DNA of 64,000 nucleotides, from the NCBI GenBank assembly GCA_028279595.1, contig JANQNK010000002.1, forward strand, positions 1,970 to 65,969. The letters run 5' to 3'. Position 1 is the first letter of the stretch, and every line of letters begins with the position of its first letter. Of the stretch, positions 11,963 to 34,377 are shown piece after piece. A program made the translations under genes and the position numbers. The DNA comes from Thermoplasmatota archaeon. Its GTDB lineage: Archaea > Thermoplasmatota > JAKEGO01. The notes beneath the pieces were generated by a model that was not told the DNA's origin, made no database searches, and was given only the letters and a program-made list of their open reading frames with translations.

Positions 11963-12357
11963 AATATAATTAAGAGAAACACTGATATTAATTTATTGTG
12001 GGTAAGAAGGCGAAATCCAAACACACTGTTTGGGGGATTCGGTGGGACCATATCAGTGCCAACCAGTATTCCAACTTAGCTAGGCGATGCCCGAATCCCC
12101 CGTTGTGTCTTCTCGAGAGAGTATGTCGAGGGGTGATCTCGCGCATTCGGTGTTGCGGAAGTCCTCGAACTCTCTCGATTGGAACCACAATCGTGAAATC
12201 ATATTTATTCATTATAGTAAAGACCGGACAAATCGTGGATGATTAGATAAATTTGGATGGACACTCAATTGTAATAGTAAATGAGAATATGATATTTCAG
12301 GGATTCATCCATTAAAATATTATATTATTACCGACATTATCCGTCGGTGGTCATAAC

Positions 12358-13080
12358 ATGGCGCAATCGAAGGTCCCAAAATCGGTAGACGAAGTTATCA
12401 AGGAAATCGAGTCGTTCGAAAAGGAAGTACAAAAGATCGGAAGACAAGCTTTCAAACAAGGAGAATATATACAAACGAAAATTCTGATCGAGTCCGCGAC
12501 CCGAATGAACACATTGAAGAAATCATTCAACGAGCTCGGAATGGAACTAAGCGATGTGTTCTCAGACGCGGAAGCTCAACTTAAGAACCTTCCTGCAGGA
12601 AAAACTCGTACGTCGACGAAACGTATACCACGCGGAAAGAAAACTCCGGAGGACGCATATCGAGAACCGATACTCAATGCACTCTCAGAACTCGGTGGGA
12701 AAGGAACTACATCAGAGGTCCTCGACAAGGTCTACGAACAGTTGAAAGACGTCCTAAATCAATTCGATAAACAACCAGTCCCCTCAGTACCTTCACAACA
12801 GAGGTGGCGACACACTGCGCAGATCGTCCGAAACAAGATGATGAATGAAGGCTTGGTCAAGAAGAACTCGCCTCGCGGTATTTGGGAAATTTCTACCGCC
12901 GGGACGAAGACGATCACACCGAATAAGTCCTCAAAGAAATCGTCTCAATCGAAGAAGAGCTCATCGTCGAAGAAATCGACGTCCAAACCTAAATCCAAGA
13001 CCTCTTCCAAGAAGCAGTCGTCTTCGAAGAAGTCCACGACTCTGGAAAAGACGGAATCGAAACCTGACGCGAAGAAGTAA
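12358..13080 (+). CDS. Coiled-coil plus Mrr_N-like winged-helix protein with Lys/Ser-rich basic tail (paralog 1)
   Basis: PILNALSELGGKGTTSEVLDKVYEQL...SQQRWRHTAQIVRNKMMNEGLVKKNSPRGIWEISTAG resembles the N-terminal wHTH of Mrr-type restriction proteins. Tail is SSKKSSQSKKSSSSKKSTSKPKSKTSSKK. Clear paralog at 24601-25224. Confidence 0.75.
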   Translation: MAQSKVPKSVDEVIKEIESFEKEVQKIGRQAFKQGEYIQTKILIESATRMNTLKKSFNELGMELSDVFSDAEAQLKNLPAGKTRTSTKRIPRGKKTPEDAYREPILNALSELGGKGTTSEVLDKVYEQLKDVLNQFDKQPVPSVPSQQRWRHTAQIVRNKMMNEGLVKKNSPRGIWEISTAGTKTITPNKSSKKSSQSKKSSSSKKSTSKPKSKTSSKKQSSSKKSTTLEKTESKPDAKK

Positions 13081-13251
13081 TCAACCGATTCAAAGCTCGA
13101 AGACACCAAGACCACGAATTTATACCCTACAATGACGAATCCGTCGACGCAGCTTGCGCTAATGATGGCCATTTCGTTAATCTGAGCCCTTTGCATGCGG
13201 TTCTCAGCCTCATTACCGCAACACTGCGCAGGTATAATCTCTATTAATTAT

Positions 13252-13509
13252 TCAAGTTGTTTGATCGATGATATTAAAGTGCTCCTGCATCTCCTGATGA
13301 AGTTGATTAAGTTCTTGCAGATTGGAGTGCAGATCCCCTTTTATTTCAAGAAGTCTTTTTTCAACTTCATTCACGTATTTAATACGTAAATGTTTATGAG
13401 TTTTATACGCGTCAACACCAATGGCTTGAAGGTCTCGCTCAACCGAATCTAGATAATGTTGGAGGTTTTTTACTTGAGTATCTACTTTCTTCCTATCCAT
13501 GTATCCCAT
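13252..13509 (-). CDS. Small hypothetical coiled-coil protein
   Basis: 85-aa ORF with heptad-like charged/hydrophobic pattern. No family recognised. Confidence 0.35.
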   Translation of the reverse strand: MGYMDRKKVDTQVKNLQHYLDSVERDLQAIGVDAYKTHKHLRIKYVNEVEKRLLEIKGDLHSNLQELNQLHQEMQEHFNIIDQTT

Positions 13510-13743
13510 CCCCGGGACTCCCTATAACGCGTTTTATGTTGATATAATTATTCATCGACGTTATTGATATATACATTTTAGATTTCATAACTCTCAGATG
13601 TGACAATGGGTCAGTCTACCGAATTATCAGAACATTTTCCATATTGATTATTCCATAATGAGCCCACTCTCTACCGGCATGGAAGATCCGTATAGGAAAT
13701 TGATAAGTAACTCCGTATCCTTCTCCTGTCCCCCCGAACTGTC

Positions 13744-13808
13744 GTTTACTGTAAGAAACGTTGGTACATAATTGTAATATTACCGTTACAACCGGGGGGA
13801 AATTCCTC
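13744..13808 (+). repeat. Copy B of the island repeat family
   Basis: 19-mer identical to 2512-2530. Its interior aligns with 18254-18290 (AATTGTAATaTTACCG). GAAATTCCTC at 13799-13808. Abuts the stop of the 1374-aa gene. Confidence 0.8.
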
Positions 13809-13812
13809 AACC

Positions 13813-16800
13813 TCATGTTCTTCGTCGGGAATTCCAAAGAATGGCGGTAATAACAATAAAGATTGTCGGGAGAATCGCGATTTCAGGGATCTTTTCGGGA
13901 GAACTCGTTTCGACTGGATCTTCGTGAGGATATCTGTCCTCAGCATTGCCGGGACCGTCTATGGAGTATGTACCCGAACCGCTCCAATCGGACCAATAAT
14001 TCCCCTCGGTGATACCATCATCCCATTCATTGTGTGATGTATTGTCGTAAGCTTGGGACGATGCACCAGTATTGTTCGCGAAGTTATTATGGTGAACCTT
14101 CATTTGTGTTGACCCTGAAGAGTATATTCCATAATTGCCATTCCCGAATATCTCATTGAAGATAATGGTAATATTGTCAGAGGAGCTAATGAATAATCCG
14201 TAATCATCGTTGTTAGAGCAGGTATTGTTTGCTACATGAATTTTGACAGAGGAATTGTAATGGATACCAATGTAGTTATCAGACACGTTACAATTCTTGA
14301 TTGTATGGCCATATGAACCATTCGAATAAATTCCTTGAACGTTGTCAATTATCGTGCTATTAAAGATAGCGGCACTGTTATTCGTTAAGTTAATTCCTGC
14401 GCGGCTTCCGTTCCGGATCGTGATATGGCTGATATTAACATCTGAACCGGTTATTTCGATAACATTCCCGGTATTATTCCCATCAATGATCGTCTCTTCA
14501 GAACCATTGCCAACAATCGTTATTGATACGGGAATAACCAGGTTCTCTATGAATAATCCTTCATAAACTAATATCGTGTCACCTGCAGTTGCATTATCGA
14601 TTGCATCCTGAATAAATTGGTAATCTGCTCCCCCATCATCATCTACAGTGATGATTGAAGAACTATATATTCCTTCTATCCTAATTGGCCAACTATTACA
14701 GAACGAGAATGGTTGGCTTATTCCATCGTCTATGGTGGCACAGATGTAATGAGTACCATTCGTGACATTTGTTATATCCCATTCAATTGTACCAAATCTA
14801 TCGTTCTCCTCATGGTAACCTATTAGATTATCACCAGATTCTCCATCCGAGTATGTGAATGTGACATTGGCTATACTATCTTTGTCGCTCGCGTAGTATG
14901 AGATAGCTATAGTTTCTGATGCCATACGATTAACTGTCAATTGGTCGATATTTGGAATGAGGATCACATACGGCATATCATTTCCACCAACCTCGATATC
15001 AAGTTCATTTACCAGAGGATATCGATCTTTAGCAGGACTATCTCCATCGATGTGATATTTTTCTTCTCCAATACCATCGTCATCAGTATCCGTACCTGTG
15101 TAATCCGACCAATAGTTGCCACTCGATCCATAATCCCAGTCATTGCTGGAACTGTTCCCACCATCGTCCAATCCTTGTGCAGTTGCGTTGATCGAAATAA
15201 TGTTGTCAATGAAATTATTATGATGTATCATGCATCGAACGGTGAATCTATCCGCGGACACCCCATACCCGTGGTTACGACGCAATTCATTATCATAGAT
15301 TGATATTGTACGAGCCTCATCAAGAACGATACCTTCACCTTGATTATTAATGAATAAGTTATTCTGAATGATGAACCTCTTCGAGTCCATGATATCCAAT
15401 CCTATTGAATTATTGATAAAAGAACAATTCTTGACCATAAGTCCTTCCGAACTATAGCTCCGTAGACCTACTCCGATGTTGTCTGAAATGTTATTGTCAA
15501 TATATGTGTCGTCAACAGCATTTCGTGAGAGAATCGCTTCGTCCCAGTTATTCCTCATGATACAATTAACGAATGAATTCTCGAGAGTGTCCCTCAAGTA
15601 CAGGCTTCTTCTGCTTCCTGAAAGGTTCGAATTTATTACAAGGTTCCGAATACCTGTGTCCATAGAAAATGCATTACTTGAAGCGCTATGGATTTCACAT
15701 CCTGAGATTGTATTATTATCACCGTCGTTCATTGTCAATCCAACACTACTTGGATTATCTATCGTACAGTTGAATAGTGTCGAATTATCAACTCCTATCA
15801 TGTATACTGATCGCGCGGATACATTAACAAAATAGACGTTGGACGATTGAAACAGTCGGATATTCGCGGGTACTTCTACTTTCTTGGAGCTCTCAAAGAT
15901 AACGTTGTTGCAGTGAGCCATCATTATGTGCGGGCTTGCATTGAATTGCGCTCCATCGTAGGAGAAATAGGAGCAATTGACAACGATTATCTGTCCTACG
16001 TCGTTTGGTATTATAAATTCACTACTATTTAATTTGAAAAAAACCTGTTTTCCATTGACTGTATTATTAAAGATAAAGTGGGTTGTGAAGTGTTCGATAT
16101 CAGAACCCCAGAATTGTATGGAATCGTTCACGAGGGTACAATCAGTGACACGGGATCCCGTTGCAGAATTTATTAGGATTCCGCCACCAATTCCACTGTC
16201 GGAAACCGTACAGTTGACTATAGATGTTCTCTGACCCATAACACCGATCCCGGTCCCCGATGTAAAAGTAATATTACTATTGGTAATTGTTGTATTATCG
16301 CTTTTCGACCTGATTCCGGACAGGCAATGTTCAATCAGACAATTGTCAATGTAGGCCTCATTGGAGTCATCAAGCCTGATCGCATAATCCTCTATCTTTG
16401 AGAAAGTGCAATTGTCTACCTTCGTATCCGTGCAGTGTTCGAAGGTCAATCCCATTGGTAATTGGTCGAAACTTGATGATGATATAGTTACGTTATCTGA
16501 ATATACAACCTTCAATGTCTCGGTATAATTGAAGACACAATCATTGATATTTACATTTGAGCTACCTACGATGATAATTTGAGACACATCTGATTCGATT
16601 GAATATGATGACTCATTCTTGATGAAGATGATCGGTTTACCGTTAAGGGTGCAATTGGTAATCACATGTGAGTTATAATGTTGTACCTCGTTCCCTTTAA
16701 TCGAAATGAACTCATCGATAAACCTGCATCGCTCGATGCTAATTCCTATCTTATTGTATATTTCGAACCGTCCATGGAAATAATCGTTATACGTCCATTC

Positions 16801-17937
16801 GGAGGACTTGATCTTACAACCGATTACACTTGTACGATCACCAAAATGTCGAATGGCTTTGGAATTGTTTGAGATAACACACCTCTTAATTAAGATGTCA
16901 GGGACATCCCTAAGCCAAATCCCTTCCTCCGAATTTGAGAATATGTTGGAGCTGTATATTGACGAATATTGAGAATCACCTCTAAATTGAAACCCATTTT
17001 CATTCTGACTCAAGGTGCAATTATTGAATGTGTTATTCCATCCATCCCATACGGATATTCCAGACTCGGTATTATTGATTATTTGAGCTTCAGTGACATT
17101 GACGTTGTCACTCCCCCATACGTCAATCCCAACCCCATCATTATTGACGATAGTGCAACCGCGTACTACAACCCCGTCCGATCCCCTAAGGAATAGCGTT
17201 TCTGCTCCAATGATAGAATGACTAGATTTTGTGTTTCTAAGGGTTGAATTTTCAATTATGCAACTGTCAGTTCCCCAAACACCCCAAACATATATCGCAT
17301 TGTCTGTACAATTATCTATCACGCATGAATCAATCGTAGCATTGGCTGAAGTGATCATGATTCCAATACCGCTAATATCTTTAATCTGAGAGGCCCGAAT
17401 GTTGGTGTATTGACCGTTGATGCTGATACCAGCACTACAATTAGTGACAACAGAATCAGAGATCGTGTTGTGCGTGCGAGTGTTATTAATTCGAATTCCT
17501 TGTGTACTATTGAAGATACGACAGTCCTCAATTAGGTTTCCATGTGATGCAATCCTTAGGCCGCGATTAGTCTTGGAACCAGTGATCCCAAAAAATGAAA
17601 TAGAACAATTACTAGCAGAAATCAGGAGACCATCACCATCGCCACCACTTCTAATAATCGATTCAGTCGTACCATTTCCAATTAGGAGAACACGTTTGTA
17701 AACATCGATCTCATCGATAGAGTCATCGGGAGAATAATTTCCCGCGAAAACGCGGATTGTATCACCGATCACTGCGTTTTGAATCCCATCTTGAATTGTC
17801 CCATACGGATTATCTTCTGCCCCGGTGGCAGACATGTTTCCCTCATTATCATCATCAACGTAAATTGTCGCACCTTGAGTATTGATCCCTATCAATACTA
17901 ATGCTAGAATCGCTAATGCAAAGATGGTCCCTTTCAT
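13813..17937 (-). CDS. Giant (1374 aa) two-module parallel beta-helix (NosD-like) surface protein with signal peptide and C-terminal TM anchor
   Basis: MKGTIFALAILALVLIGINTQGA signal. Module starts TIYVDDDNEG..GTIQDGIQNAVIGDTIRVFAGNY and IITVDDDGGADYQFIQDAIDNATAGDTILVYEGLF. Module ends GNYWSDYTGTDTDDDGIGEEKYHI..DRYPL and GNYWSDWSGSGTYSIDG..DRYPH. C-terminal ILPTIFIVITAILW. Confidence 0.85.
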   Translation of the reverse strand: MKGTIFALAILALVLIGINTQGATIYVDDDNEGNMSATGAEDNPYGTIQDGIQNAVIGDTIRVFAGNYSPDDSIDEIDVYKRVLLIGNGTTESIIRSGGDGDGLLISASNCSISFFGITGSKTNRGLRIASHGNLIEDCRIFNSTQGIRINNTRTHNTISDSVVTNCSAGISINGQYTNIRASQIKDISGIGIMITSANATIDSCVIDNCTDNAIYVWGVWGTDSCIIENSTLRNTKSSHSIIGAETLFLRGSDGVVVRGCTIVNNDGVGIDVWGSDNVNVTEAQIINNTESGISVWDGWNNTFNNCTLSQNENGFQFRGDSQYSSIYSSNIFSNSEEGIWLRDVPDILIKRCVISNNSKAIRHFGDRTSVIGCKIKSSEWTYNDYFHGRFEIYNKIGISIERCRFIDEFISIKGNEVQHYNSHVITNCTLNGKPIIFIKNESSYSIESDVSQIIIVGSSNVNINDCVFNYTETLKVVYSDNVTISSSSFDQLPMGLTFEHCTDTKVDNCTFSKIEDYAIRLDDSNEAYIDNCLIEHCLSGIRSKSDNTTITNSNITFTSGTGIGVMGQRTSIVNCTVSDSGIGGGILINSATGSRVTDCTLVNDSIQFWGSDIEHFTTHFIFNNTVNGKQVFFKLNSSEFIIPNDVGQIIVVNCSYFSYDGAQFNASPHIMMAHCNNVIFESSKKVEVPANIRLFQSSNVYFVNVSARSVYMIGVDNSTLFNCTIDNPSSVGLTMNDGDNNTISGCEIHSASSNAFSMDTGIRNLVINSNLSGSRRSLYLRDTLENSFVNCIMRNNWDEAILSRNAVDDTYIDNNISDNIGVGLRSYSSEGLMVKNCSFINNSIGLDIMDSKRFIIQNNLFINNQGEGIVLDEARTISIYDNELRRNHGYGVSADRFTVRCMIHHNNFIDNIISINATAQGLDDGGNSSSNDWDYGSSGNYWSDYTGTDTDDDGIGEEKYHIDGDSPAKDRYPLVNELDIEVGGNDMPYVILIPNIDQLTVNRMASETIAISYYASDKDSIANVTFTYSDGESGDNLIGYHEENDRFGTIEWDITNVTNGTHYICATIDDGISQPFSFCNSWPIRIEGIYSSSIITVDDDGGADYQFIQDAIDNATAGDTILVYEGLFIENLVIPVSITIVGNGSEETIIDGNNTGNVIEITGSDVNISHITIRNGSRAGINLTNNSAAIFNSTIIDNVQGIYSNGSYGHTIKNCNVSDNYIGIHYNSSVKIHVANNTCSNNDDYGLFISSSDNITIIFNEIFGNGNYGIYSSGSTQMKVHHNNFANNTGASSQAYDNTSHNEWDDGITEGNYWSDWSGSGTYSIDGPGNAEDRYPHEDPVETSSPEKIPEIAILPTIFIVITAILWNSRRRT

Positions 17938-18242: not shown

Positions 18243-18328
18243 CTGTAAGAAACACTGATACGGAATTGTAATTTTACCGGTAAAATCACGCCAATTTCCC
18301 CCCCTTCTCGTAGGATCGTTTCTTACAG
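18243..18328. repeat. 86-bp unit bounded by 11-bp inverted copies of the family core (CTGTAAGAAAC ... GTTTCTTACAG)
   Basis: Arms at 18243-18253 and 18318-18328. Interior carries TTTTACCGGTAAAA and a C7 run. The left part aligns with copy B. Confidence 0.75.
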
Positions 18329-18409: not shown

Positions 18410-19729
18410 CTAGTAGTTATTAACAATCCACTGTTTTAGAAGTTGTTGTTTTTGTCCAATTTTCCCTTTTGCAATCTCGATATTTATATCATTGGGTAAG
18501 GTAGATAATATTGGGTGAATTGCTTTTAAATAGGTACTTCCTACGTTGATAAATACATCGGAATAGTCTTTGTTCTGCAGTATCTTGTGAAACTGACCTC
18601 TTATTTGGTCTATAAAGGTTTCAACATTTTCAAGGGACAATTTTTCATCATACGGTGAAATCACCTTCGTTGGTTCAATTAAACCATATTTCGATGAAAT
18701 AATAAATATATCGAATCCATCTCTATTAGAAAATGACCAAAGATGTTTCCTTAAAATTTTAAACATGATCCCATCGTATATTTTAATTGCCTGAGCCTTT
18801 TTCAATGAGGGATGTTTTGTTTTTGAGCATGAAATAATAATCATTTTATTATTGGGGTTCCAATACTGATTCCTTGAAAGGATATTAGCGTTAATATAAT
18901 CTCTAATTTGATAATATCGCTTTTTTTGAGCTGGGACATTTCCACGCTTTGGGGACGATCCTTGATATTGAAAAATCCACCCTTTATAGTCACTTCCAAA
19001 TACAGAGTATCGTCTGAATAAAATATGTCGTTTTGGAGAATAGCAACCAAGCGCGAAGAGATTAATATTGGGATAGTTATCACGAATTTCTGAGAGTATT
19101 AATCTTAAATTATCCTCATTTCTCACGTTAACGTATCTTACACTATTAACTCTTTTTACAAGCATTCCCCCTATTCCGATATATGAATATCCCAATTCAA
19201 TTAATTCTGAGACACAGTCGATATATTCATTCACTGATTTTCCTTGGGCGACTCCAAGTAATTTAAATGAATATGAGTTGTCTTGATATTCTTCGATTGC
19301 TTTTGTTGCACTTATAAGGGTTTGAGTACGATCCTTTATAATATCAATAATTACTCCAAAATCAATTTTCAGCTTTTCGTACTCTTGAAATAAATATGTA
19401 TAATCTAAATTTGAATATCCTTCTTTCGTAAAAACTGCAGAGTCGCAAATTGTGAATATTTTCCTTTGAAATTCTAGTCCTGCCCGACATTGATTAATAT
19501 CAATTTTATAAGGACATGGATTATCTTCAATGATGCTACACCGTTGTGGATTGACACATGGGAAAACTTTGAATGCTTCTTTAAAATTCTTATGAGTATT
19601 TACATGTGTCATTAATCCAATATGTTTGTTCTCTGGTATCTTAATTCCACTGATTATTCTTAAGGATGCTTGTCTATCTGCAACTAAGTAAGGAGTGAAT
19701 TTTTTTACATTGAGATTTGGATTAGTCAT
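18410..19729 (-). CDS. TGT/DpdA-like transglycosylase TIM-barrel domain fused to a C-terminal SCSxxK...PYD (DUF6884-like) domain
   Basis: TGT-fold landmarks in the right order: ICDSAVF (cf. DSGGFQ), LLGVAQGKS (cf. GIVQGG), YIGIGGMLV (cf. GYAIGGL), LFALGCYSP...VFGSDYKGW (cf. LLGVG.P...DMFDCV). C-terminus has IIISCSKTKH...IKIYDG..F...IFIISSKYGLIEP...ISPYDEKL. Met3 at 19729 gives an ATGA overlap with the upstream stop; ATG 19735 is also possible. Confidence 0.7.
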   Translation of the reverse strand: MTNPNLNVKKFTPYLVADRQASLRIISGIKIPENKHIGLMTHVNTHKNFKEAFKVFPCVNPQRCSIIEDNPCPYKIDINQCRAGLEFQRKIFTICDSAVFTKEGYSNLDYTYLFQEYEKLKIDFGVIIDIIKDRTQTLISATKAIEEYQDNSYSFKLLGVAQGKSVNEYIDCVSELIELGYSYIGIGGMLVKRVNSVRYVNVRNEDNLRLILSEIRDNYPNINLFALGCYSPKRHILFRRYSVFGSDYKGWIFQYQGSSPKRGNVPAQKKRYYQIRDYINANILSRNQYWNPNNKMIIISCSKTKHPSLKKAQAIKIYDGIMFKILRKHLWSFSNRDGFDIFIISSKYGLIEPTKVISPYDEKLSLENVETFIDQIRGQFHKILQNKDYSDVFINVGSTYLKAIHPILSTLPNDINIEIAKGKIGQKQQLLKQWIVNNY

Positions 19730-20730
19730 AGGCAATCATCTGAAGGAAAATCAAATATAAATGTTTGTCCACAACCTTGAGAATTGTCACGATAACGAGA
19801 GGGTAAACAGTAACCTATTTGAATATTATCGTTCTTTCTGACTAGTCTATATATCGATAAGATATCTGGTTTTGGTCCAATTGGACTAAACACTAAATTG
19901 TAATTATCAATGGAAATATTTTCCTCGTCAGCAAATACATCGAGAATACTCTTAAATTCGTTATGAAATTGCCATGGGTGAAAGCCACTTATTTCTTTTG
20001 ATGTAACAAATTGATTCGCTAATAAGTCTTTATTATTTCGGTAGACAATGTCTTTTTGATCACTCCAATTTGGAATGCTCGTTACGGGAATTAATGCTAA
20101 GGTTCGATATGGTTTATAATTTCGAAAAATTGACATCGCTCGATTTCCTTGGAAACCAAGGTATATTAACAAGATAGAATCGCGGTGCCTGACCTTTCCA
20201 TGAAATGTAGGTACAGAAAATATCTTATGGGTTCCCATGACAAAATCATTTTCAGCAGAGCTATATTCTCCAACCATTGAATATGTAAAAATGGTTTTAT
20301 CTAGATCTATAATATCCAATGTTATTAATGCACAATATTTAGGAATACAAGATAAATCAACGATTAAAGGATATGAGAATGAGCATTCATGAATAACTTG
20401 ACGAAATTTATGATACTGATACAAGTTTAATGAAATTATTGAAAATTCGATTCCAAATGAATTCAATAATTGTTGTATTAACCTCTTATTTTGTTGGTAT
20501 TTTCTAATTGTCTCCTTGTCTTTCACATCAAGTGAAGAGATATTTAGTAATGATTGCTGATAATTTGTAAAGTCAATTAACCAACATTCCCTGATTTGAT
20601 ATTGAGTAATAATTGTTCTTATCGAGTGATACGACCGGTCCGCAAAACTAATAGCACAAATTAAATCAACCATATCATTTTTATATTTATTACTTTCTTG
20701 AATTAACTGTCTTGATGGAGTTATTCTCAT
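19726..20730 (-). CDS. Hypothetical protein (334 aa), third gene of the operon; alpha/beta Rossmann-like pattern, no motif recognised
   Basis: ORF with ATGA overlap to the upstream SIR2 gene (tcat at 20727-20730). Alternating hydrophobic strands: LICAISF, LIVDLSCIP, ILLIYLGFQGN, TLALIPV, LVFSPIGPKP. Confidence 0.75.
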   Translation of the reverse strand: MRITPSRQLIQESNKYKNDMVDLICAISFADRSYHSIRTIITQYQIRECWLIDFTNYQQSLLNISSLDVKDKETIRKYQQNKRLIQQLLNSFGIEFSIISLNLYQYHKFRQVIHECSFSYPLIVDLSCIPKYCALITLDIIDLDKTIFTYSMVGEYSSAENDFVMGTHKIFSVPTFHGKVRHRDSILLIYLGFQGNRAMSIFRNYKPYRTLALIPVTSIPNWSDQKDIVYRNNKDLLANQFVTSKEISGFHPWQFHNEFKSILDVFADEENISIDNYNLVFSPIGPKPDILSIYRLVRKNDNIQIGYCLPSRYRDNSQGCGQTFIFDFPSDDCL

Positions 20731-23228
20731 TCATCTCCCCAATCAAATTCAAAGTCATCTTTCTCAATAACAAGAAATTCTAACCAGTTTTCAAGAAGTG
20801 ATTTTACAAATGAATCAGTATCATGAAGTATTGTATTGAAATGATCGGCGTTTATCTCTCTAGGATGTCGATTTTGAATGGCTAATGAGAAGTATGGGGT
20901 TAATAATCTATGGAATTTATAATTCCGATAAGGTGTTTTTTCTCTTGCATGAAGATTTCGTGGAAATAATGGTTCTTGCAACAGCTGTACTTCGAGAGCT
21001 TGTCTTAAATAATCCTCAAGTTCATCTTCGATAGGTGAACTCATAGTATTGATGCAAATTTGTGAGGTTCGTCTGATTAAGTCTTTTTCTTTAACATAGT
21101 TGAAATCATCATTTGCCATTCGTTTTTTATATCGGTTAACGCCAGCTGTTTGGATCCCTTTGAATAACTCACCTAATGCATCAATTAATCTTCTAACGTG
21201 TTCCGGATTTTCGATATCTTCATTTGATTGCATATAATGAAGAACGGACTTGATTTTCACAACATGATTTTGGGCATTACAAGGAATCGGATTGAGTTCC
21301 ACTTTTTTTTGACTGATATCTGGAAAAGCATAGTACAGCGTGTCTTTGACAAGCGAAACAAAATCTCGAACGATCCCAGAGGATAAATATGCATAATTTC
21401 GAAATCCAGAATAATCCATTCCAATACTTAAGGGTTCTTCAATTGATTCATAATTTTTACTTGGAAGTAACACCTCAATGTTATTAATGTTGAATTCCTC
21501 TTCATCTAAACGTCTATTGGCTACATTTTTTAAAAACGATATGTATTTTTCTCTATCTTTAATCGTGAATCTATCTAAACTTACCGGATAATAATCGTGA
21601 TATTTCCGGAGAATTTTATTATTTGTATCATGATAACACATTGACCCACTTTTAACTCCAATTTTATAATTGAGGTGGAAGTTATATTGTAACGGGGCAT
21701 TTCGGCTTCTTAGTGTTGTATTAATTACTCTCTGTTGATCAGTTGATAAATTATCAAACTCATCGAGAAGAATATACACGTTTTGAAATTGTAATATGTT
21801 ATGAAGTTTCTTTAACGAGTGAAGAAGTACAAGTGGACCAGTTAACGTTAAATGATCATATTGGCCGGTAGTACACAAATCCATCTCTGAATATAAAAGG
21901 TCACAGAGACTATCTAATGAATTAACATTCTCTAAATGAAAAATCTTACCGATTGAGTGTGCTATTTCGTTTGAATTGTCGAATGACAACTCGTCTTCCA
22001 TAAGTTCACAAATATGAGTCATTAAAAATAAATTAAAATAATGTTGGAAAAACCTTGCCCATTTAATATCGTCCTCGAACTCTTTTTCAGTGGCATAGAA
22101 AGCTTCTGGTAAACATTTTATGTAAAATGCCAGATTCTCATCACTCTGATTAAGTATTATTGATAAATAACGAAGAAGCCATGACTTGCCTGAACCCCTA
22201 TGCCCTTCGATAATCGTATTGCTTCCTGGTTCTACCATTCGAATATAGTCCGTAGGCGGAATAAAATATTTCTTGATAATATCCTCTTCACCTTTTCGAA
22301 CAATTTCAGAACTAATGTATTTGAAAGGATTTTTATCTTTCGTGAAACTAGATTCTTTTCTTTCTATAGAGGAATTCGACATTGAAAAACGTTGATACAT
22401 AATTTGTAAATTCTGAATGAAGTGGTTTGCATCTGAATGAACGAATTTAAATCCATACTGTTGAACTAAATCATCCGCCTCTAGCTCTGAATCATCAGAA
22501 ATTAGATAATTCGTCTTTCCATTGTGTTCACTATGAATCTCCTTATAAACTATTCGAAAGTTAATGTCTTGAGCACTATAACCGATTAAAACAAGTATTT
22601 TCTCTCTAAAAAGTACCCTCAATTTGTCCTTAAATGCTTTATTATTTGATTGATTCATCCATTGCTCAAAATCATCTTTCGTTATGACAATTGAAGATGG
22701 TTCGATTGTATCACCATGAATTTTATAGATATTAATAGATGGATTAGGAGGTTGATGCATTTGGTCTTCCTTGTAATATAATTGGTACTCTGAAGAATCG
22801 GTATATGATTTTTCTAGCAAATGATCATAATTTGTTGTTATAAAGTCACACGGAGGCAACTCAGTAATCATTTTATGTAATATACTAGTATTTTCTTCTT
22901 CCACACTTTCAATTATGTGGGCAATTTTAATCTTTAATTCCTCATCAGTATAATTGTTTTTGTATAGTTCAATTATCTCTTGAGGATCCCCGCCATTTTC
23001 CAGAATTTGTCGAGGTTCTGCAAGGATAGGTTTTTTTTCCAATTCTTCGGCGAGTATATTCGCTAACTCTCTCAAATCGGGTAATCCAGCACTGGTACTT
23101 ACTCCAGCACCCAGAATGATGACATAATTTTTATTAGTCATAGCCTGAAGTAATGGAGAAATGTCCATATTCGAATTAATGGCTTTTTCGACTCGTTCTT
23201 TCACCACGGCACCACTATCTTTGGTCAT
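20727..23228 (-). CDS. SIR2-like (SIR2_2 type) domain fused to a P-loop NTPase
   Basis: N-terminus: VIILGAGVSTSAGLPDLRELA, FITTNYDHLLE, IYKIHGD. Middle: Walker A IEGHRGSGKSWLL and Walker B VYILLDEFDNLS. GGTGA lies 5 nt upstream of the ATG. Confidence 0.85.
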   Translation of the reverse strand: MTKDSGAVVKERVEKAINSNMDISPLLQAMTNKNYVIILGAGVSTSAGLPDLRELANILAEELEKKPILAEPRQILENGGDPQEIIELYKNNYTDEELKIKIAHIIESVEEENTSILHKMITELPPCDFITTNYDHLLEKSYTDSSEYQLYYKEDQMHQPPNPSINIYKIHGDTIEPSSIVITKDDFEQWMNQSNNKAFKDKLRVLFREKILVLIGYSAQDINFRIVYKEIHSEHNGKTNYLISDDSELEADDLVQQYGFKFVHSDANHFIQNLQIMYQRFSMSNSSIERKESSFTKDKNPFKYISSEIVRKGEEDIIKKYFIPPTDYIRMVEPGSNTIIEGHRGSGKSWLLRYLSIILNQSDENLAFYIKCLPEAFYATEKEFEDDIKWARFFQHYFNLFLMTHICELMEDELSFDNSNEIAHSIGKIFHLENVNSLDSLCDLLYSEMDLCTTGQYDHLTLTGPLVLLHSLKKLHNILQFQNVYILLDEFDNLSTDQQRVINTTLRSRNAPLQYNFHLNYKIGVKSGSMCYHDTNNKILRKYHDYYPVSLDRFTIKDREKYISFLKNVANRRLDEEEFNINNIEVLLPSKNYESIEEPLSIGMDYSGFRNYAYLSSGIVRDFVSLVKDTLYYAFPDISQKKVELNPIPCNAQNHVVKIKSVLHYMQSNEDIENPEHVRRLIDALGELFKGIQTAGVNRYKKRMANDDFNYVKEKDLIRRTSQICINTMSSPIEDELEDYLRQALEVQLLQEPLFPRNLHAREKTPYRNYKFHRLLTPYFSLAIQNRHPREINADHFNTILHDTDSFVKSLLENWLEFLVIEKDDFEFDWGDE

Positions 23229-23247
23229 GAATTCACCAGGACTAAGT

Positions 23248-24204
23248 TTATTTTTCGTAAATTGCCAAAACGTTCATATCAGGTTCAGATTTCATTGTGC
23301 CAATTATCCGGATTCCATGTTTATATCCACGTTTAATAAAATTGTAGGCAAATACTCCAGTATCGTAATCACCATTCGGACAAACGTGTAAATGTAATGT
23401 GTCTCCCGAATTCGTTAAAGGTACACGATAATCAATCCATGAAATTCGGCCATTTTCTGATGCAGAATTTTCTACCACTCGAATAGCGTCATCCTCGTTG
23501 AAATGATCGTTAAACCATTGCCAATATTCTTTCCTCTTCTTTCGTACTGAGGCAGTCATATTTCCGGACTCATAGGTTGGAGGTTTACACCGGTGATCAG
23601 ACGAAAGCAATTTATCATAAAGGAGCTCAATTTTCCCATTTTCAAACTCACAAGCGGTAGGTATTAATTTTGTCTCAGGAACATCATTTGTTTTCGATTC
23701 CGATTGACTTGGTAAATTTAAAAACACCAATGACCTTGGAACTGAAATTATACTATTTGGATCTCTCCATTGTTTCTCATCTGTGCCGTTTTCGACGATG
23801 AATAATCTTTCAGGATAGCTTGATAAATAATGTAATGATAAATTTATCAACTGACGATATGGGTTATTTACTGGTTGAAGTCGCACATTATATCCAGATT
23901 TTGCGGTTGTTCCTTCACCTACTTCTTTACCTTTCTCAGCTGAGATGCTTGGTTTAATGAATGTGAATATTCCGCTCAACAGGCTCCCGATTTCAGTTGT
24001 CGTTACAGAGCTGGAAAGATTTAATTTTTTTCGTATTTGTTTAACATTGGATTCGGATAACTGAAACTCATAAAACTCCTGATCAAAATCAGGTCTTACG
24101 ATGGCATCGTAGAAATTACTGATTTGAGGCTTATCAATAAAACATGGTGCGTCAGCCATCCAACCCAGAGAGAGTATCTTATTATTGATGAGATCCTTCT
24201 TCAT
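23248..24204 (-). CDS. Hypothetical protein (about 318 aa), first gene of the operon
   Basis: Long ORF. I prefer ATG 24204 (MKKDLINN), which is preceded by AGGGGGA and an AT-rich TATA-like stretch. The ORF-track start at 24243 is a TTG. No family recognised. Confidence 0.7.
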   Translation of the reverse strand: MKKDLINNKILSLGWMADAPCFIDKPQISNFYDAIVRPDFDQEFYEFQLSESNVKQIRKKLNLSSSVTTTEIGSLLSGIFTFIKPSISAEKGKEVGEGTTAKSGYNVRLQPVNNPYRQLINLSLHYLSSYPERLFIVENGTDEKQWRDPNSIISVPRSLVFLNLPSQSESKTNDVPETKLIPTACEFENGKIELLYDKLLSSDHRCKPPTYESGNMTASVRKKRKEYWQWFNDHFNEDDAIRVVENSASENGRISWIDYRVPLTNSGDTLHLHVCPNGDYDTGVFAYNFIKRGYKHGIRIIGTMKSEPDMNVLAIYEK

Positions 24205-24386
24205 TTCATCAATCCCCCTATGTAACCCATATATATGTATCAATTATAAATATTCCTTAGTGCTACGAGTATATATACAATCAATATCCGAATAATATTC
24301 ATCGCTATTATTCTTGGAGAGATATCTTTTTATTTTTTCTTAGTCTGCTTTGCGTAATCATTCGAGATATACAAATTTACTAGATA

Positions 24387-24436: not shown

Positions 24437-24457
24437 AACGTTTCTTGGAAGTAACAG
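24437..24457 (-). repeat. Diverged copy D of the island repeat core, in reverse orientation
   Basis: The reverse complement reads CTGTTACTTCCAAGAAACGTT. It shares TTACT and the exact 10-mer AAGAAACGTT with the 19-nt core. Confidence 0.5.
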
Positions 24458-24600
24458 TTGATGGAATATAGTAAAAACGCTGATCTTGAACGTCCGTCCG
24501 TATGTGACAATTCGAAAATGTTAGTAAATACATGTAATTTCTTTGTATAGTGATTATTATTATATATTATCCACAATCATTCTGTATTTGGGAACAGGTG

Positions 24601-25224
24601 ATGACTTTGGGTAGTACTAAGAATATGTTCGGAGAAGTGACATCCTCGGTTGATGAGTTGATGAAAAAAGCGAAAGAGAGCTCGAAACATGCCTTCAAGG
24701 TAGGAGATTACAGAGCAACAACAACTCTATCAGAAAATATCCAAAGAATGAAGCAGCTCAAGAAAAACATGGCTGAGATCCACAAGGAATTCAATAATAT
24801 CGAACACTCTGTCACATCAATACAAATAATTGAAAAACCTAGGACACGTGGTTCAAACCTTCGCGGTAAAGTGACTACCGGAAAGGATTTTATTACCCCA
24901 ATTCTCAAGTCCATCAATGAACTGGGCGGTTCTGTAAAGACAAGTGACGTTCTTAAGAAGGTAAAACAGAAGATGAGTTTTAAACTCAATGAATTTGACA
25001 AGCAACCTCTACCATCGAATCCCTCAATGCCACGATGGAAACAAACAGCACAATCAATCCGAGTTCAAATGGTAAATGATGGCCTTCTGAAGAAGGATTC
25101 TCCAAGAGGTGTCTGGGAGATCTCAGCGCAAGGACGTAAAGCGATCGAATCCGATCAGAAGAAATCGGTAAAACCGAAATCCAAATCTCAGCTTAAAGGT
25201 AACACAAAGGCGAATTCAAAGTAA
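24601..25224 (+). CDS. Coiled-coil plus Mrr_N-like winged-helix protein with basic tail (paralog 2)
   Basis: PILKSINELGGSVKTSDVLKKVKQKM...PSMPRWKQTAQSIRVQMVNDGLLKKDSPRGVWEISAQG aligns with 12358-13080. ATG 24601 is preceded by AGGTGA. Confidence 0.75.
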   Translation: MTLGSTKNMFGEVTSSVDELMKKAKESSKHAFKVGDYRATTTLSENIQRMKQLKKNMAEIHKEFNNIEHSVTSIQIIEKPRTRGSNLRGKVTTGKDFITPILKSINELGGSVKTSDVLKKVKQKMSFKLNEFDKQPLPSNPSMPRWKQTAQSIRVQMVNDGLLKKDSPRGVWEISAQGRKAIESDQKKSVKPKSKSQLKGNTKANSK

Positions 25225-26259: not shown

Positions 26260-26980
26260 TCTTGTAATTATATTTTAATTAATATATAAACTTTGTTAAT
26301 TAAATTCGGATGATGCATGAGAATTTTACTTCCAAATCTATCGAAAACGTGCGTAATTCCGGGATTTAGGGGGTATTTTCCAAGAAAAGGGCGTAATAAT
26401 GTATATCATTGTTTACATATCTAGTTATTTAGTTTGTAAACAATGCATACATGTTTACAAAAGTATTATATACTACATGTCCTCGACTGTATATTATTGG
26501 AAAAGACGCTATAATACCTCACTGATACTTCGAAATTATCGTATCCGACAGCTTGAGATGTAGATATTCAAATTTCCATATAGAATAATGCTATAATGCT
26601 TCGGTTACTTTAATACGTTATAACCCTTCCACAATCGTTCATATAGTACTTTTATATGGGAGAATAATCTATGGAAGAAATCGTTATCCAGAGATCAATA
26701 TTCAATTCTTCCAATCCATAAGCTATATTGAAGATCTACGATACTACATCATGACTCTTATTTGAAACGATCTCAAGATTTTACTGTATTACTGAGAATT
26801 AGTTGTGTGATATGCAATTTCTGCTACTATGTCTATATTATTCGTTCAGAACACGTACCAGAGGTACCCCTCCCCCTCCCCGTGTTAGAATTACCCTCAA
26901 CTATGCGTAAAGAGGCATGTCATGGGGTACCCATAGAGGTACCGATTTAAGATTGGAATTGAACTTGGGACCATGCCCTT

Positions 26981-27052
26981 CGAGGCACCCTCCTAGGCAT
27001 CTCCCTAGGCACCTCCCTAAGCACCCTCCTAGGCACCCCCCTAGGCACCCCC
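26981..27052. repeat. Six tandem copies of a 12-bp unit, CTAGGCACCYCC
   Basis: Units at 26981, 26993, 27005, 27017, 27029 and 27041, read directly. A GC-rich array in AT-rich non-coding DNA, 90 bp past the integrase stop. Confidence 0.9.
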
Positions 27053-27142
27053 CACACCCACCTTGAACATGTTAGTTGTCACCTGAATGTGCTGAACCGA
27101 GGTCCATGAAGGAAGCGCATTAATCGCTTTCTCGGAAGGCAT

Positions 27143-28090
27143 CTAGATTCTTAGTTTAGGGATGTAGGAGAGGTACATTCGACGAAGCTCGGCGGCGTCG
27201 ATGTGATGGTATATGTCAATTGCCTCTGCACGGCGGTCGCCTCTAAGCTCCTTGACATGCTCTCTCGGCATTCCGGACCGGATAAGATGCGTCGTGAACC
27301 AATGTCGGAGGCAGTGAGGGCCGAAGTGATCCTCAAATTTGTCGGAGTCGGGATTGTGGAAACCGAGCTTAATTGCCGGATTAACGATGGCTTTCCATGC
27401 CGCGTTTCGGGAGAGTCGTGATCCTGTCTGGTAACTCACGAAGAGAGCATCGGTGGTAGTCCCGAGTTTATCACGGACTCTCATCCACCGTTGGAGTGCC
27501 CTCGAAGCCTCGTCGTCGAAGAAGACTCGCCGGTTGGACCGCTTCGGGGTGGGTTTGAGCATAGCGGATCCTTCGGTCCAATTGATATCGCTGACGTCGA
27601 GCTTGAGCATCTCACCTCGTCGTATACCGGTCTTCGCGAGGAGCAGTATCATCGCCTTGTCACGGGGATCCATTACGGCACTCACGAGAGCGGAGAGCTG
27701 TTCAACTGACAGTAACTGACGTGTCGATTGCTCATGGCCGTTCTTATAGCGCTTCAAATAGCGCTTTCGGAACGGAAGAACGAGGTTATTGTCGACATAC
27801 TCCTCGAACATGAGGTAATCGTAGAACGACGAGAGGACCGAGAAGTAGTTCTCAAGTGTCTTGAACTTGACCTTACGCTCCTCCATAAGGTAAGATAGGA
27901 AATCTCGGAGAGTGTCCATACTAAGGTCCAACGGAGAAATTTCGTGACGATTGAGGTATTGAATGAAAATGTTCAGACTCGTTTGATAGTGGCGGATCGA
28001 TTCCATGGTCATATTCTGCAACTTGCAGTCTTCGATGTATGCCTCTAGCAGGGCATCAGGATCCATTTTCTTGCCCTTCTTCTTTGCCAT
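27143..28090 (-). CDS. Tyrosine recombinase / phage-type integrase (XerC/D-like)
   Basis: LLLAKTGIRRGEM (catalytic Arg), HCLRHWFTTHL (H-x-x-R), LRGDRRAEAIDIYHH (catalytic Tyr). N-terminal SAM-like domain. ATG 28090 overlaps the upstream TGA by 1 nt. Confidence 0.9.
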   Translation of the reverse strand: MAKKKGKKMDPDALLEAYIEDCKLQNMTMESIRHYQTSLNIFIQYLNRHEISPLDLSMDTLRDFLSYLMEERKVKFKTLENYFSVLSSFYDYLMFEEYVDNNLVLPFRKRYLKRYKNGHEQSTRQLLSVEQLSALVSAVMDPRDKAMILLLAKTGIRRGEMLKLDVSDINWTEGSAMLKPTPKRSNRRVFFDDEASRALQRWMRVRDKLGTTTDALFVSYQTGSRLSRNAAWKAIVNPAIKLGFHNPDSDKFEDHFGPHCLRHWFTTHLIRSGMPREHVKELRGDRRAEAIDIYHHIDAAELRRMYLSYIPKLRI

Positions 28091-28635
28091 CACGAACCCC
28101 TCCAACGCCATTTCTTGCCGAGACATTCAACGACACCTATCTGTTCTAGCATCTCTAGCTGGATCGAGATCGCATTAATGAAATCCGATTGTGTTGACTT
28201 TATACCAAGCTTCCGCAGGATGTCGCCTTGAGTAAGAGGTTTGGTTGACGACCTGAGTATCTCTATTAGTTCCGGATCGAATGGCCTCGGTCCCTCGAAG
28301 TCATTGTCGAGGAATGGTGCAGAGCGATAACGTTTCAACTCGGTGTCGAGAGAATCACTGAGATTGCGTAGCATACGATTCTCTTGTTCAAGTTCCTTGA
28401 CCATCTCGTCCCTGATCTGAATCTGTTCAAGTAGTTCGAGCCGAGAAGGTCCTTGGTCCTCATCAACCTCGGTATTGAGTGAGTCAATCACGCGTTGAAT
28501 GATGAACTTCGAGATAGACATGTTCTCGTTAGTGGCACGAGCCTTCCACTCTTCTGCTAACTCGACTGATGGTAAATACACATACAAGGCACGTTGTTTT
28601 ATTGTCTCAGTCTTCCCTTTATTTGGTTTCCCCAT
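28090..28635 (-). CDS. Ribbon-helix-helix / coiled-coil / winged-helix protein (candidate element regulator or excision factor)
   Basis: N-terminus QRALYVYLPSVELAEEWKARATNENMSISKFIIQRVIDSL (RHH pattern). Central coiled coil. C-terminus LTQGDILRKLGIKSTQSDFINAISIQLEMLEQIGVVE. Translationally coupled to the integrase. Confidence 0.65.
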   Translation of the reverse strand: MGKPNKGKTETIKQRALYVYLPSVELAEEWKARATNENMSISKFIIQRVIDSLNTEVDEDQGPSRLELLEQIQIRDEMVKELEQENRMLRNLSDSLDTELKRYRSAPFLDNDFEGPRPFDPELIEILRSSTKPLTQGDILRKLGIKSTQSDFINAISIQLEMLEQIGVVECLGKKWRWRGS

Positions 28636-28686: not shown

Positions 28687-28774
28687 TGGTGCGGGGGAAG
28701 GGATTTGAACCCTCGGACTCCTTCGAGAACAGATCTTGAGTCTGCCGCCTTTGGCCAGGCTGGGCTACCCCCGC
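28687..28774 (-). tRNA. tRNA-Leu (anticodon CAA), class II, genomically encoded CCA
   Basis: Manual fold: acceptor GCGGGGG/CCCCCGC, anticodon stem GCAGA/TCTGT, loop CTCAAGA, 14-nt variable arm with CTC/GAG stem, T arm GAGGG-TTCAAAT-CCCTT, discriminator A73, then CCA. Confidence 0.85.
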
Positions 28775-34263: not shown

Positions 34264-34377
34264 CACGGATGAGCTTTGCTCATCCTGCTCGGGAAAATGA
34301 ATTATAGTAGAACGATATCATTCTCCCTCGTGGCATATTGGGAAACCTAGGCCACACTTCAATTGCAGATCGCTCAT

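Follow-up and report, generated by a model that had tools for sequence, protein, structure and literature searches.

The stretch of DNA analysed here, called the window in the following, comprises 64,000 nucleotides of contig JANQNK010000002.1 from a Thermoplasmatota archaeon, and all positions refer to it. Between 18410 and 24204 it carries four intact genes, G1 to G4, all on the minus strand, as read from the list of open reading frames (ORFs) and from the sequence. Together they very probably form an immune-type system of some kind. Its predicted components are a transglycosylase related to the DNA-modifying enzyme DpdA and fused to a DUF6884 domain (G4), a SIR2 domain fused to an ORC/Cdc6-like ATPase (G2), a tandem CARF-fold protein (G3) and an accessory protein (G1). 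An original prediction, made from the sequence alone, had proposed an undescribed defence or DNA-modification candidate at this site; our analysis supports this proposal and specifies the transglycosylase as DpdA-like and, more tentatively, the DUF6884 domain as DpdC-like.

The four ORFs were listed at 23248-24243 (331 amino acids (aa), start TTG), 20727-23228 (833 aa), 19726-20730 (334 aa) and 18410-19735 (441 aa, start TTG). On a public contig of identical sequence the genes were called independently, with products of 318, 833, 334 and 439 aa, and the starts of G1 and G4 were therefore placed at the ATG codons at 24204 and 19729, which, judged from the sequence, are more likely starts than the listed TTG codons. 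With the coordinates thus adopted, the locus comprises the following features.

24244-24250, minus strand: candidate archaeal TATA-like element TTTATAA, about 43 nucleotides (nt) upstream of the G1 ATG, read from the sequence.
24212-24217, minus strand: candidate ribosome-binding site GGGGGA preceding the G1 ATG, read from the sequence.
23248-24204, minus strand: G1, 318 aa, accessory first gene of the operon (start in the ORF list, TTG 24243).
23229-23247, minus strand: spacer between G1 and G2, 19 nt, with the Shine-Dalgarno-like GGTGA.
20727-23228, minus strand: G2, 833 aa, predicted NADase-type SIR2 domain and ORC/Cdc6-like P-loop ATPase.
22404-23165, minus strand: SIR2 domain of G2 (aa 22-275), with the codon of the catalytic His171 at 22716-22718.
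20730-22277, minus strand: ORC/Cdc6-like ATPase region of G2 (aa 318-833), with Walker A at 22182-22205 and Walker B at 21753-21770.
20727-20730, minus strand: ATGA overlap of the G2 stop and the G3 start, read from the sequence.
19726-20730, minus strand: G3, 334 aa, predicted tandem Rossmann-like, CARF-fold protein.
20338-20358, minus strand: G3 signature D125-x-S-xxx-K131, which reads D125-L-S-C-I-P-K131.
19726-19729, minus strand: ATGA overlap of the G3 stop and the G4 start (Met3 of the listed ORF), read from the sequence.
18410-19729, minus strand: G4, 439 aa.
18875-19729, minus strand: N-terminal domain of G4 (aa 1-285), predicted DpdA-like DNA/tRNA-guanine transglycosylase TIM barrel.
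19442-19444 and 18989-18991, minus strand: catalytic codons of G4, D96 and D247, respectively.
Within G4: Cys4 insertion formed by C58, C64, C72 and C81.
18410-18844, minus strand: C-terminal domain of G4 (aa 296-439) with the stop codon, DUF6884, with the CxxxK motif C301-K305 at 18815-18829.

The tight packing of the genes had been described before and is found in both the ORF list and the independent call. The G1 stop codon TAA (23248-23250) is followed by the 19-nt spacer and the G2 ATG (23226-23228), so that the gap with GGTGA reported for the SIR2 gene is indeed in place. Both reported ATGA overlaps can likewise be read in the sequence, and the ATG start on which the second one depends is backed by the 439-aa gene call.

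Several lines of evidence connect the N-terminal domain of G4 to DpdA. The protein matches the DpdA models of PADLOC (E 9e-11) and NCBIfam (E 5e-10), and when a profile of 36 family members was compared with the PDB, the single significant solved protein was the DNA preQ0 insertase DpdA (7UI4, E 2e-6). The same structure was the best Foldseek match (E 8e-10) of an AlphaFold2 (AF2) model with a pLDDT of 88.9, followed by bacterial tRNA-guanine transglycosylases (TGTs). Alignment by hhalign of the G4 family with a genuine DpdA, encoded on a dpd plasmid of Enterobacter (95.3%, E 2e-8), places D96 opposite D95 and D247 opposite D256. In DpdA, mutagenesis has identified D95 as general acid/base and D256 as nucleophile, and D130 has a catalytic role as well (PMC10164549). 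D96, D129 and D247 of G4 are invariant in the 36 sequences, and invariant or nearly so are D129 (D130 in DpdA), Q162-G163 (H181-G182) and G187-G188 (G206-G207). Thus, the TGT fold with both Asp motifs that had been recognised in the fourth gene is upheld by the PDB profile search, by Foldseek and by hhalign. The canonical C-terminal Zn subdomain of TGTs is absent from G4, and the Cys4 insertion is found in its place. A role of G4 as canonical archaeosine tRNA-TGT was considered and rejected, since there is no Pfam TGT match, PUA/C1-C3 domains are missing and DpdA is the nearest relative.

The C-terminal domain of G4 matches DUF6884 (PF21818) with 63.3 bits (gathering threshold 30; E 3.4e-17) and the YaaA/DUF328 family of Pfam with 29.8 bits, barely over the cut-off of 29.6 (E 5e-7). 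The motifs that define DUF6884 are CxxxK and LSAxxG (PMC11701544), and their residues C301, K305, S345 and G349 are invariant across the G4 family. With PADLOC, the best match was PDC-M57A (E 9e-14), and DpdC was matched at E 0.008. In hhalign the domain aligned with a genuine DpdC, itself verified by PADLOC (6e-142), at 74% (E 2.7e-5), and a C-x-x-x-K-H motif is common to the G4 C-terminus and the N-terminus of DpdC, the latter part read in the upstream frame. Taken together, the sequence comparisons indicate that G4 is a distant DpdA-DpdC-like fusion in one protein of 439 aa. The PADLOC candidate system PDC-M57 was not equated with the operon; only its A model, a DUF6884 model, fits, and the other PDC-M57 models match none of the partner proteins tested. 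No relatives of G4 were found in the viral contig collection.

For G2, the motifs named in the original prediction are all intact: the SIR2 motifs GAGVS..GLP, TTNYD and KIHGD, which includes His171, as well as Walker A (GHRGSGKS) and Walker B (LLDEFD). The Pfam scores are well over the thresholds, with 93.7 bits for SIR2_2 (PF13289; gathering threshold 24.5, E 1.4e-26) and 156.5 bits for ORC-CDC6-like (PF24389; gathering threshold 27, E 1.5e-45) over aa 318-600. H171, Walker A (GxRGSGK) and Walker B (LLDE) are invariant across six homologues. The PADLOC model for the ThsA SIR2 domain matches aa 23-275 (E 1.4e-28), and the matches to PDC-S25, LmuA and Dsr2 are likewise confined to the domain level. 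A profile of the six homologues retrieved from the PDB the proteins USG (7uxt, E 9e-31), ThsA (2.5e-26), KomC (9e-26) and DSR2 (4e-23), which places the SIR2 domain of G2, as far as its sequence tells, with the defence NADases. The Dsr1 and Dsr2 equivalogs of NCBIfam (cut-off 1400 bits) gave only 37.2 and 15.9 bits with the SIR2 domain alone, and the match to the Sll1717-family ATPase of NCBIfam (E 9e-11) is under its cut-off. SLOG and TIR domains were not detected in any of G1 to G4 with Pfam and PADLOC. Profile searches, the check that had been proposed for the SIR2, TGT, DUF6884 and AAA families, thus uphold the SIR2 and TGT assignments, as do profile-profile and fold searches.

G1 and G3 had both been regarded as orphans, which does not hold for G3. 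Three PADLOC models named CARF6 match G3 with E-values of 4e-21, 3e-15 and 7e-14, the last one spanning nearly the full length. The AF2 model (pLDDT 92.9) has two Rossmann-like domains in tandem. In Foldseek it retrieved Sso2081/Crn1, Csm6, Can2, Cam1, Card1, Csa3 and the two-CARF protein Can1 (TMq 0.51), with a probability of 1.00 but modest E-values of 6e-4 to 1e-2, and tandem universal-stress proteins were matched too. D125 is conserved in the family, and the signature fits the CARF pattern [DN]x[ST]xxx[RK]. On the strength of the model and the profiles we regard G3 as a tandem CARF-fold protein and predict that it senses a ligand. The fold family has 509 representatives; one relative lies on a contig of only 1.4 kb and gives no synteny information (L041; loci outside the window are given as L numbers). 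In two of the Dehalococcoidia loci with distant G3 relatives (L042 and L044) a tiny DUF5679 gene is found near the G3-family gene.

G1 has no match in Pfam, PADLOC, NCBIfam, PHROGs or the PDB, neither with the single sequence nor with a profile; the best PDB match, NurA (2ygk, E 1.1), was dismissed as noise. Homologues with 39-53% identity are located directly upstream of the SIR2-ORC gene in two other lineages (L030/L051/L052 and L055/L056), and there they are present only where HerA and NurA are absent.

The gene neighbourhood of the families was determined in two scans. A G4-family seed of 92 clusters, mostly archaeal, was used for species-representative genomes and yielded 35 loci, and a G2-family seed yielded 18 loci in metagenomes, 13 of which extend far enough to be judged and five of which end too early. 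Operon types were drawn from ORF clustering and tblastn maps. The original prediction had named the co-occurrence of homologues as a check, and their synteny extends across many archaea and bacteria that are unrelated to each other. SIR2-ORC was found together with a G3 homologue and TGT, with DUF6884, in 20 of 20 assessable loci (7/7 genomic loci of type II and 13/13 metagenomic loci).

The TGT gene, with DUF6884 fused or separate, occurs in at least four operon types. Type I, the majority with about 28 loci, combines it with a NurA-like protein of about 610 aa and HerA. Type II has SIR2-ORC and a G3 homologue and comprises the window, Methanolobus tindarius, metagenome-assembled genomes (MAGs) of Halobacteria and Spirochaetes, two Bryobacterales and one Blastocatellia. 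Type III contains a DpdJ-like helicase, a DpdK-like PLD protein and a protein of 399 aa (L015, L018), and type IV contains DISARM-like DrmA, DrmB and DrmC in an operon without methyltransferase (L011, L045). The linkage is therefore asymmetric: SIR2-ORC and G3 are always found with TGT-DUF6884, and TGT-DUF6884 has several alternative partners. In some loci the modules are combined. Three loci (L063, L064, L066) are single operons of six genes encoding the NurA-like protein, HerA, SIR2-ORC, G3, TGT and DUF6884, and in others (L001, L046, L061/62, L065) one TGT-DUF6884 gene lies between the HerA/NurA and the SIR2-ORC/G3 modules. The fusion of SIR2 with the ORC-like ATPase is retained in the HerA-containing sister operons. 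Type II loci keep one gene order across archaea, Acidobacteriota and Spirochaetota, the 4-nt overlap of the G3 and TGT genes is also present in L028, L031, L040 and L064 (at least five loci including the window), and no further gene family is common to the type II loci. In the Spirochaetes MAG (L028:5007-5390) and in L064 (9338-9991), the gene after DUF6884 encodes a thymidylate-kinase-like P-loop protein (FEGxDGSGK ... DRY), and in the Blastocatellia locus (L040:14540-15193) such a gene lies nearby; the copies in L028 and L064 are identical over the 128 aa covered by L028.

The distribution is patchy, with Methanosarcinales, Methanomassiliicoccales, Thermoplasmata, Halobacteria and Bathyarchaeia among the archaea and Cyanobacteria, Chloroflexota, Acidobacteriota, Planctomycetota and Spirochaetota among the bacteria. 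The operon and its relatives frequently sit in defence-island settings. In the window, the G+C content of the operon is 31-38%, compared with about 60% in the DNA right of about 29 kb, and patches of low G+C continue as far as the left end. To the right of the operon lies a tyrosine integrase gene (27143-28126; PF00589, E 2e-28), which adjoins a tRNA-Leu(CAA) gene (28687-28774). The AT-rich island and the integrase had been noted previously, and both are present; the distance from G1 is about 2.9 kb and not about 4 kb. In a Methanoculleus MAG (L016), a canonical SIR2-HerA pair (11419-14773; PADLOC HerA E 1e-285, SIR2 E 6e-171) abuts a NurA-like/HerA/TGT-DUF6884 operon in convergent orientation, L045 contains an integrase, and the neighbours in L002 are HicA, a methyltransferase and a UvrD-type helicase.

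Two loci show the cassette in other surroundings. On the Trichormus variabilis conjugative plasmid NZ_CP047244.1 (L047), a TGT-DUF6884 fusion of 472 aa (166568-167986; DpdA E 9.5e-14, PDC-M57A E 8e-30) is encoded just after the type IV secretion system genes; it is surrounded by hypothetical genes, none of them recognisable as a restriction partner, and similar matches were obtained on Nostoc plasmids. In a Bathyarchaeia MAG (L010), a queuosine-salvage gene (5186-6187; PF10343, E 1.9e-15) is located directly upstream of a NurA-like/HerA/TGT operon; it is the sole direct neighbour from the 7-deazaguanine pathway that was found.

From what was observed, namely the structure of the genes, their homologies, the conservation of catalytic motifs and of synteny and the swapping of partners, we favour a model in which G1 to G4 form one translationally coupled operon for a Dpd-like immunity that marks self DNA and responds to unmarked DNA. 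We consider the chances of this reading to be about even. Dpd and DISARM partner sets work with a DNA-modifying component. The partners of types I, III and IV already hold helicase and nuclease effectors, and the function missing from these partner sets is self-marking. Together with the asymmetric linkage, this suggests that TGT-DUF6884 serves swappable effector modules as a portable cassette for self-marking by DNA modification. A modification enzyme is also what would be expected on the Trichormus and Nostoc conjugative plasmids, where the fusion lacks a restriction partner.

In such a system, D96 in the barrel of G4 would act as general acid, D129 and Q162-G163 would bind the base and D247 would be the nucleophile. 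G4 would swap guanine in the host DNA for a 7-deazaguanine, the simplest candidate being preQ0 from the archaeosine or queuosine pathway of the host. The DpdC-like DUF6884 domain, with CxxxK and LSAxxG, would bind the base, flip it and convert it further, for instance from nitrile to amide. The ORC/Cdc6-like ATPase of G2 would engage DNA, oligomerise or both, and its SIR2 domain would hydrolyse NAD+, such that the infected cell is arrested or killed. It might also be possible that the ATPase of G2 provides energy for G4, as DpdB does for DpdA; each partner type includes an ATPase, which could be a stand-in for DpdB. G3, as tandem CARF-fold ligand sensor, would gate G2 and might in addition tether G4, in keeping with the conserved 4-nt gene overlap. 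G1 would be an accessory that fills the place held by HerA and the NurA-like protein in the sister operons. A more specific version has TGT-DUF6884 as the 7-deazaguanine analogue of a DNA methyltransferase, with unmarked DNA triggering NAD+ depletion, and no cutting, via the CARF-gated ORC-like ATPase; this we put forward tentatively, as a possibility that may well turn out to be wrong. In a bolder variant, the base-exchange reaction itself could yield the ligand that the CARF-fold protein reads.

A number of points weigh against the favoured model. G4 scores 38.7 bits against the NCBIfam DpdA equivalog NF041059, which has a cut-off of 200, the match spans aa 135-200 only, and Pfam TGT gives no match. 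By sequence, G4 thus appears to be a distant and strongly diverged relative of DpdA and no orthologue. The kinship between DUF6884 and DpdC is moderate only, as the 74% in hhalign indicates, and YaaA-like proteins have also been tied to DNA-damage binding (PMC11701544). Salmonella DpdA requires DpdB and ATP (PMC10164549); the DpdB models match none of G1 to G4 and no DpdB recurs in the related loci. Among 143 flanking ORFs screened, no QueC, QueD or FolE was found in the families matched by at least two members. No cyclic-nucleotide synthase (Cas10, CD-NTase) is located near G3 and no cyclase recurs in the type II loci. The distant G3 relatives in Dehalococcoidia (L042, L043, L044) are stand-alone genes in housekeeping neighbourhoods, so that defence operons are not the only setting of the G3 fold family. 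Since the loci were retrieved via short conserved peptide patterns, the census is biased towards conserved family members. A restriction-modification-like sensor that is read out by NAD+ depletion has no direct precedent that we know of, and all activities, as well as the substrate base, what triggers the response and which way the signal runs, are inferred.

The strongest alternative is that TGT-DUF6884 acts on the DNA of the invader. As sensor or effector it would recognise guanine or 7-deazaguanine bases and excise or exchange them, and the resulting abasic sites, covalent adducts or released bases would recruit or activate the partner module, with a logic like that of type IV. The conserved catalytic Asp residues lead one to expect base chemistry in either direction, and 7-deazaguanines are present in many phages and archaeal viruses (PMC6884629). 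For DUF6884/YaaA-like proteins, binding to damaged DNA and base flipping have been proposed (PMC11701544). Furthermore, the preQ0 genes are unlinked to the loci, and a small molecule, once released, could be read by the CARF-fold sensor encoded beside TGT. However, DISARM-like and Dpd-like sets usually need a modification partner, and TGT-DUF6884 is the sole candidate for it in L011, L045, L015 and L018. The fusion unites likely homologues of both Dpd modification enzymes, it occurs without effectors on conjugative plasmids, and its absence from the viral collection gives no sign of an exchange of the family between virus and host. The original prediction had left open whether the locus combines modification with abortive infection or is a base-exchange effector system; the swapping of partners favours the former, and we regard the action on invader DNA as unlikely.

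Rather less probable still is a function outside immunity, or one that depends on a CRISPR system. The operon might be a DNA repair or stress module, combining YaaA-like binding of oxidative damage with exchange of damaged guanines and NAD-linked signalling, or it might encode ancillary effectors driven by cyclic oligoadenylates of a type III CRISPR system that is located at another site of the genome. YaaA belongs to the oxidative-stress proteins, and YfjM, a member of DUF6884, is a binder of DNA lesions (PMC11701544). HerA-NurA is a DNA end-resection machine, and HhH-GPD glycosylase genes are present in two flanks. The best PADLOC match of the HerA partner (L001:8193-10004 and relatives) is a HerA model labelled 'Type III coevolved' (E 5e-92), and G3 fits the CARF6 models. 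The CARF profiles of G3 stem from CRISPR-linked surveys as well, and both matches hint at a connection with type III CRISPR signalling, be it historical or functional. But no CRISPR array is present in the 64-kb window, the distribution is sporadic as after horizontal gene transfer, and the window copy is located on an AT-rich island with integrase and tRNA. The affiliation of the SIR2 domain with the defence NADase clade and the association with DISARM and Dpd restriction components also speak for defence.

We think it very unlikely that the TGT-like domain acts on a protein, binding or transferring a 7-deazaguanine on G2, G3 or HerA and thereby regulating the partner. The precedent is type IV CBASS, where the TGT-family protein Cap10 binds a CD-NTase bearing an N-terminal 7-amido-7-deazaguanine (bioRxiv 10.1101/2025.04.06.647259). 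Like Cap10, G4 lacks the canonical C-terminal TGT Zn subdomain, and the tight translational coupling of the gene with its partners would suit such a role. In sequence, profile and fold, however, G4 is closest to the DNA enzyme DpdA, its fusion to a DpdC/YaaA-like DNA-binding fold points to nucleic acid, and the partner modules are DNA helicases and nucleases; moreover, neither a QueC-like Cap9 nor a CD-NTase is present in the operon or recurrent in the type II loci.

The least likely explanation, that a SIR2-ORC and CARF-like abortive-infection pair, a separate TGT-DUF6884 gene and an unrelated G1 are mere neighbours, can appeal to the clustering of defence genes, to L001, L046 and L065, where SIR2-ORC/G3 is on the opposite strand from TGT-DUF6884 or apart from it, and to the other partners with which TGT-DUF6884 clearly works, but it is contradicted by the presence of TGT with SIR2-ORC in every assessable locus, by the retained 4-nt overlap of G3 and TGT and by the constant gene order from archaea to Acidobacteriota and Spirochaetota.

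Some further features of the island surround the operon. The original prediction described it as bracketed by copies of an island repeat, which is correct for the downstream side only: the copy at 18317-18328 is an exact CTGTAAGAAACG, and the one at 24437-24457 shares only AAGAAACGTT (10 nt) with the repeat.

18243-18254, plus strand (one mismatch), and 18317-18328, minus strand (exact): inverted pair of the island 12-mer CTGTAAGAAACG, directly downstream of G4.

Exact copies of the 12-mer occur three times in the window, all intergenic, namely at 2517-2528 (+), 13749-13760 (+) and 18317-18328 (-), and the 12-mer sits inside a 19-nt near-palindrome, GTTTACTGTAAGAAACGTT. The pair downstream of G4 may be a putative regulator-binding or terminator element of the island. 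No direct repeat of the tRNA-Leu region of at least 14 nt that would mark the far, left end of the integrated element was found elsewhere in the window. About six tandem copies of a C-rich 12-nt unit, AGGCACCCCCCT, are located at 26973-27053, about 90 nt downstream of the integrase stop codon (27143-27145). The only Rfam matches are two tRNAs. The second one, tRNA-Arg(CCT) (34378-34453), is overlapped in its 5' part by a tandem repeat (34156-34419) with 1.9 copies of a 137-nt unit (81% match), which may be the scar of another integration event.

On either side of the operon region, at 12358-13080 (+) and 24550-25224 (+), two paralogous small proteins are encoded that combine a winged-helix domain of the Mrr_N family (E 6e-10 and 5e-12, respectively) with a coiled-coil-like N-terminal region. 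The former has an extra long Lys/Ser-rich tail. The paralogues are absent from the related loci, except for the identical contig (L005). The island also encodes two very large right-handed beta-helix/NosD-repeat proteins, at 13813-17937 (-) and 4306-6675 (-). One of them (1374 aa) has a hydrophobic C-terminal anchor, and the other is fused to HVO_0163-type and MarR-type helix-turn-helix domains.

If the favoured model is true, DNA modification by 7-deazaguanines extends from bacterial Dpd islands and phages to a compact single-gene cassette that is widespread in methanogens, Thermoplasmatota, haloarchaea, Bathyarchaeia and several bacterial phyla, and base-exchange marks could replace methylation in DISARM-type and other systems. 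Modification-based discrimination of self and non-self with NAD+ depletion in place of nucleases would be a new wiring of restriction-modification-like immunity and abortive infection, in which self-marking, small-molecule sensing and abortive infection are joined in one operon. Even if the mechanism is wrong, the strict linkage of SIR2-ORC, the CARF-like protein and TGT-DUF6884 constitutes a system that is missed by current defence-annotation profiles. The cultured carrier Methanolobus tindarius DSM 2278 (L001), the defined catalytic residues and the CARF-fold protein G3 provide handles for its study.

Compared with known systems, G1 to G4 correspond, as judged from their sequences, to none that has been named, be it Dpd, Thoeris, SIR2-HerA, DSR, DISARM, type IV CBASS or Qat. 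The original prediction had reached the same view, and the PADLOC, NCBIfam and Pfam matches to the four genes are indeed domain-level only. Nor was the architecture of SIR2-ORC, CARF-like protein and TGT-DUF6884 found described in the open-access literature searched.

The reference is Dpd of Salmonella Montevideo, in which DpdA, DpdB and DpdC carry out modification and DpdD-K restriction. DpdC, a member of the DUF328/YaaA family, converts dPreQ0 to dADG, and DpdB is a ParB-like ATPase required for preQ0 insertion (PMC10164549). G4 shares with this system the equivalents of D95, D130 and D256, and the GVAxG/IGG pocket, and its putatively DpdC-like domain has CxxxKH and LSAxxG in common with it. 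A DpdJ-like helicase and a DpdK-like PLD nuclease occur as well, but only in the sister loci L015 and L018, and the proposed logic of modification plus ATP-dependent restriction is the same. In contrast to Dpd, the DpdA-like and DpdC-like parts are fused in 439 aa, a ParB-like DpdB and, in the window operon, DpdD-K are missing, the Cys4 insertion of G4 replaces the C-terminal Zn site, the effector would be a SIR2-ATPase with a CARF-fold partner instead of helicases and nucleases, and the G4 family is mostly archaeal. The similarity to DISARM lies in L011 and L045, where TGT-DUF6884 shares an operon with DrmA, DrmB and DrmC and stands where DISARM has its methyltransferase, whereas G1 to G4 of the window have no Drm match and the mark would be a base exchange and not a methylation.

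With the SIR2 systems of abortive infection (ThsA, SIR2-HerA, DSR1/DSR2, KomC, SIR2-pAgo) the operon shares a SIR2 domain that is closest to theirs (family profile E 1e-23 to 1e-31), intact catalytic His/Asn motifs and, in the sister operons, HerA, as in SIR2-HerA. Unlike in Thoeris, this SIR2 domain is fused to an ORC/Cdc6-like ATPase and not to SLOG, and a TIR protein (ThsB) is missing; unlike in SIR2-HerA, SIR2 is no separate protein and the window operon has no HerA; and unlike in SIR2-pAgo and Kongming there is no pAgo and no KomAB. In addition, G2 differs from these systems in its linkage to TGT-DUF6884 and CARF-fold genes in all assessable loci, with no full-length PADLOC or NCBIfam match. 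The two CARF-fold domains per chain of G3 resemble Can1 among the CARF sensors and ring nucleases (Csm6, Can1/Can2, Card1, Crn1/Sso2081). In contrast to the CARF proteins of type III CRISPR, G3 has no fused effector, Cas10 or another cyclase is not encoded nearby and the window is free of CRISPR arrays.

Type IV CBASS (QueC-like Cap9, TGT-like Cap10, CD-NTase) and QatABCD have also recruited enzymes of the 7-deazaguanine pathway to defence, and Cap10 is, as is G4, a remodelled TGT without Zn site. The difference is that QueC, CD-NTase and TatD have no match in the operon and that G4, with its DpdC-like fusion, is nearer to DpdA. The nearest published prediction is BRC, a HerA/FtsK-centred, BREX-related system with PglZ, DUF6079 (BrxC-like), a STAND NTPase, DUF4007, GNAT and TGT, for which the authors report no DpdC homologue (PMC12839542). 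Like the loci described here, it is a predicted composite system with a TGT homologue, HerA and an ORC/Cdc6-like ATPase; PglZ, DUF6079, the STAND NTPase, DUF4007 and GNAT are missing here, however, and SIR2, CARF and DUF6884 are not part of BRC. In kind, the operon would belong to the modification-based self/non-self immunity known from Dpd and DISARM, with a new, compact DpdA-DpdC-like cassette and an unusual, predicted NADase/CARF responder.

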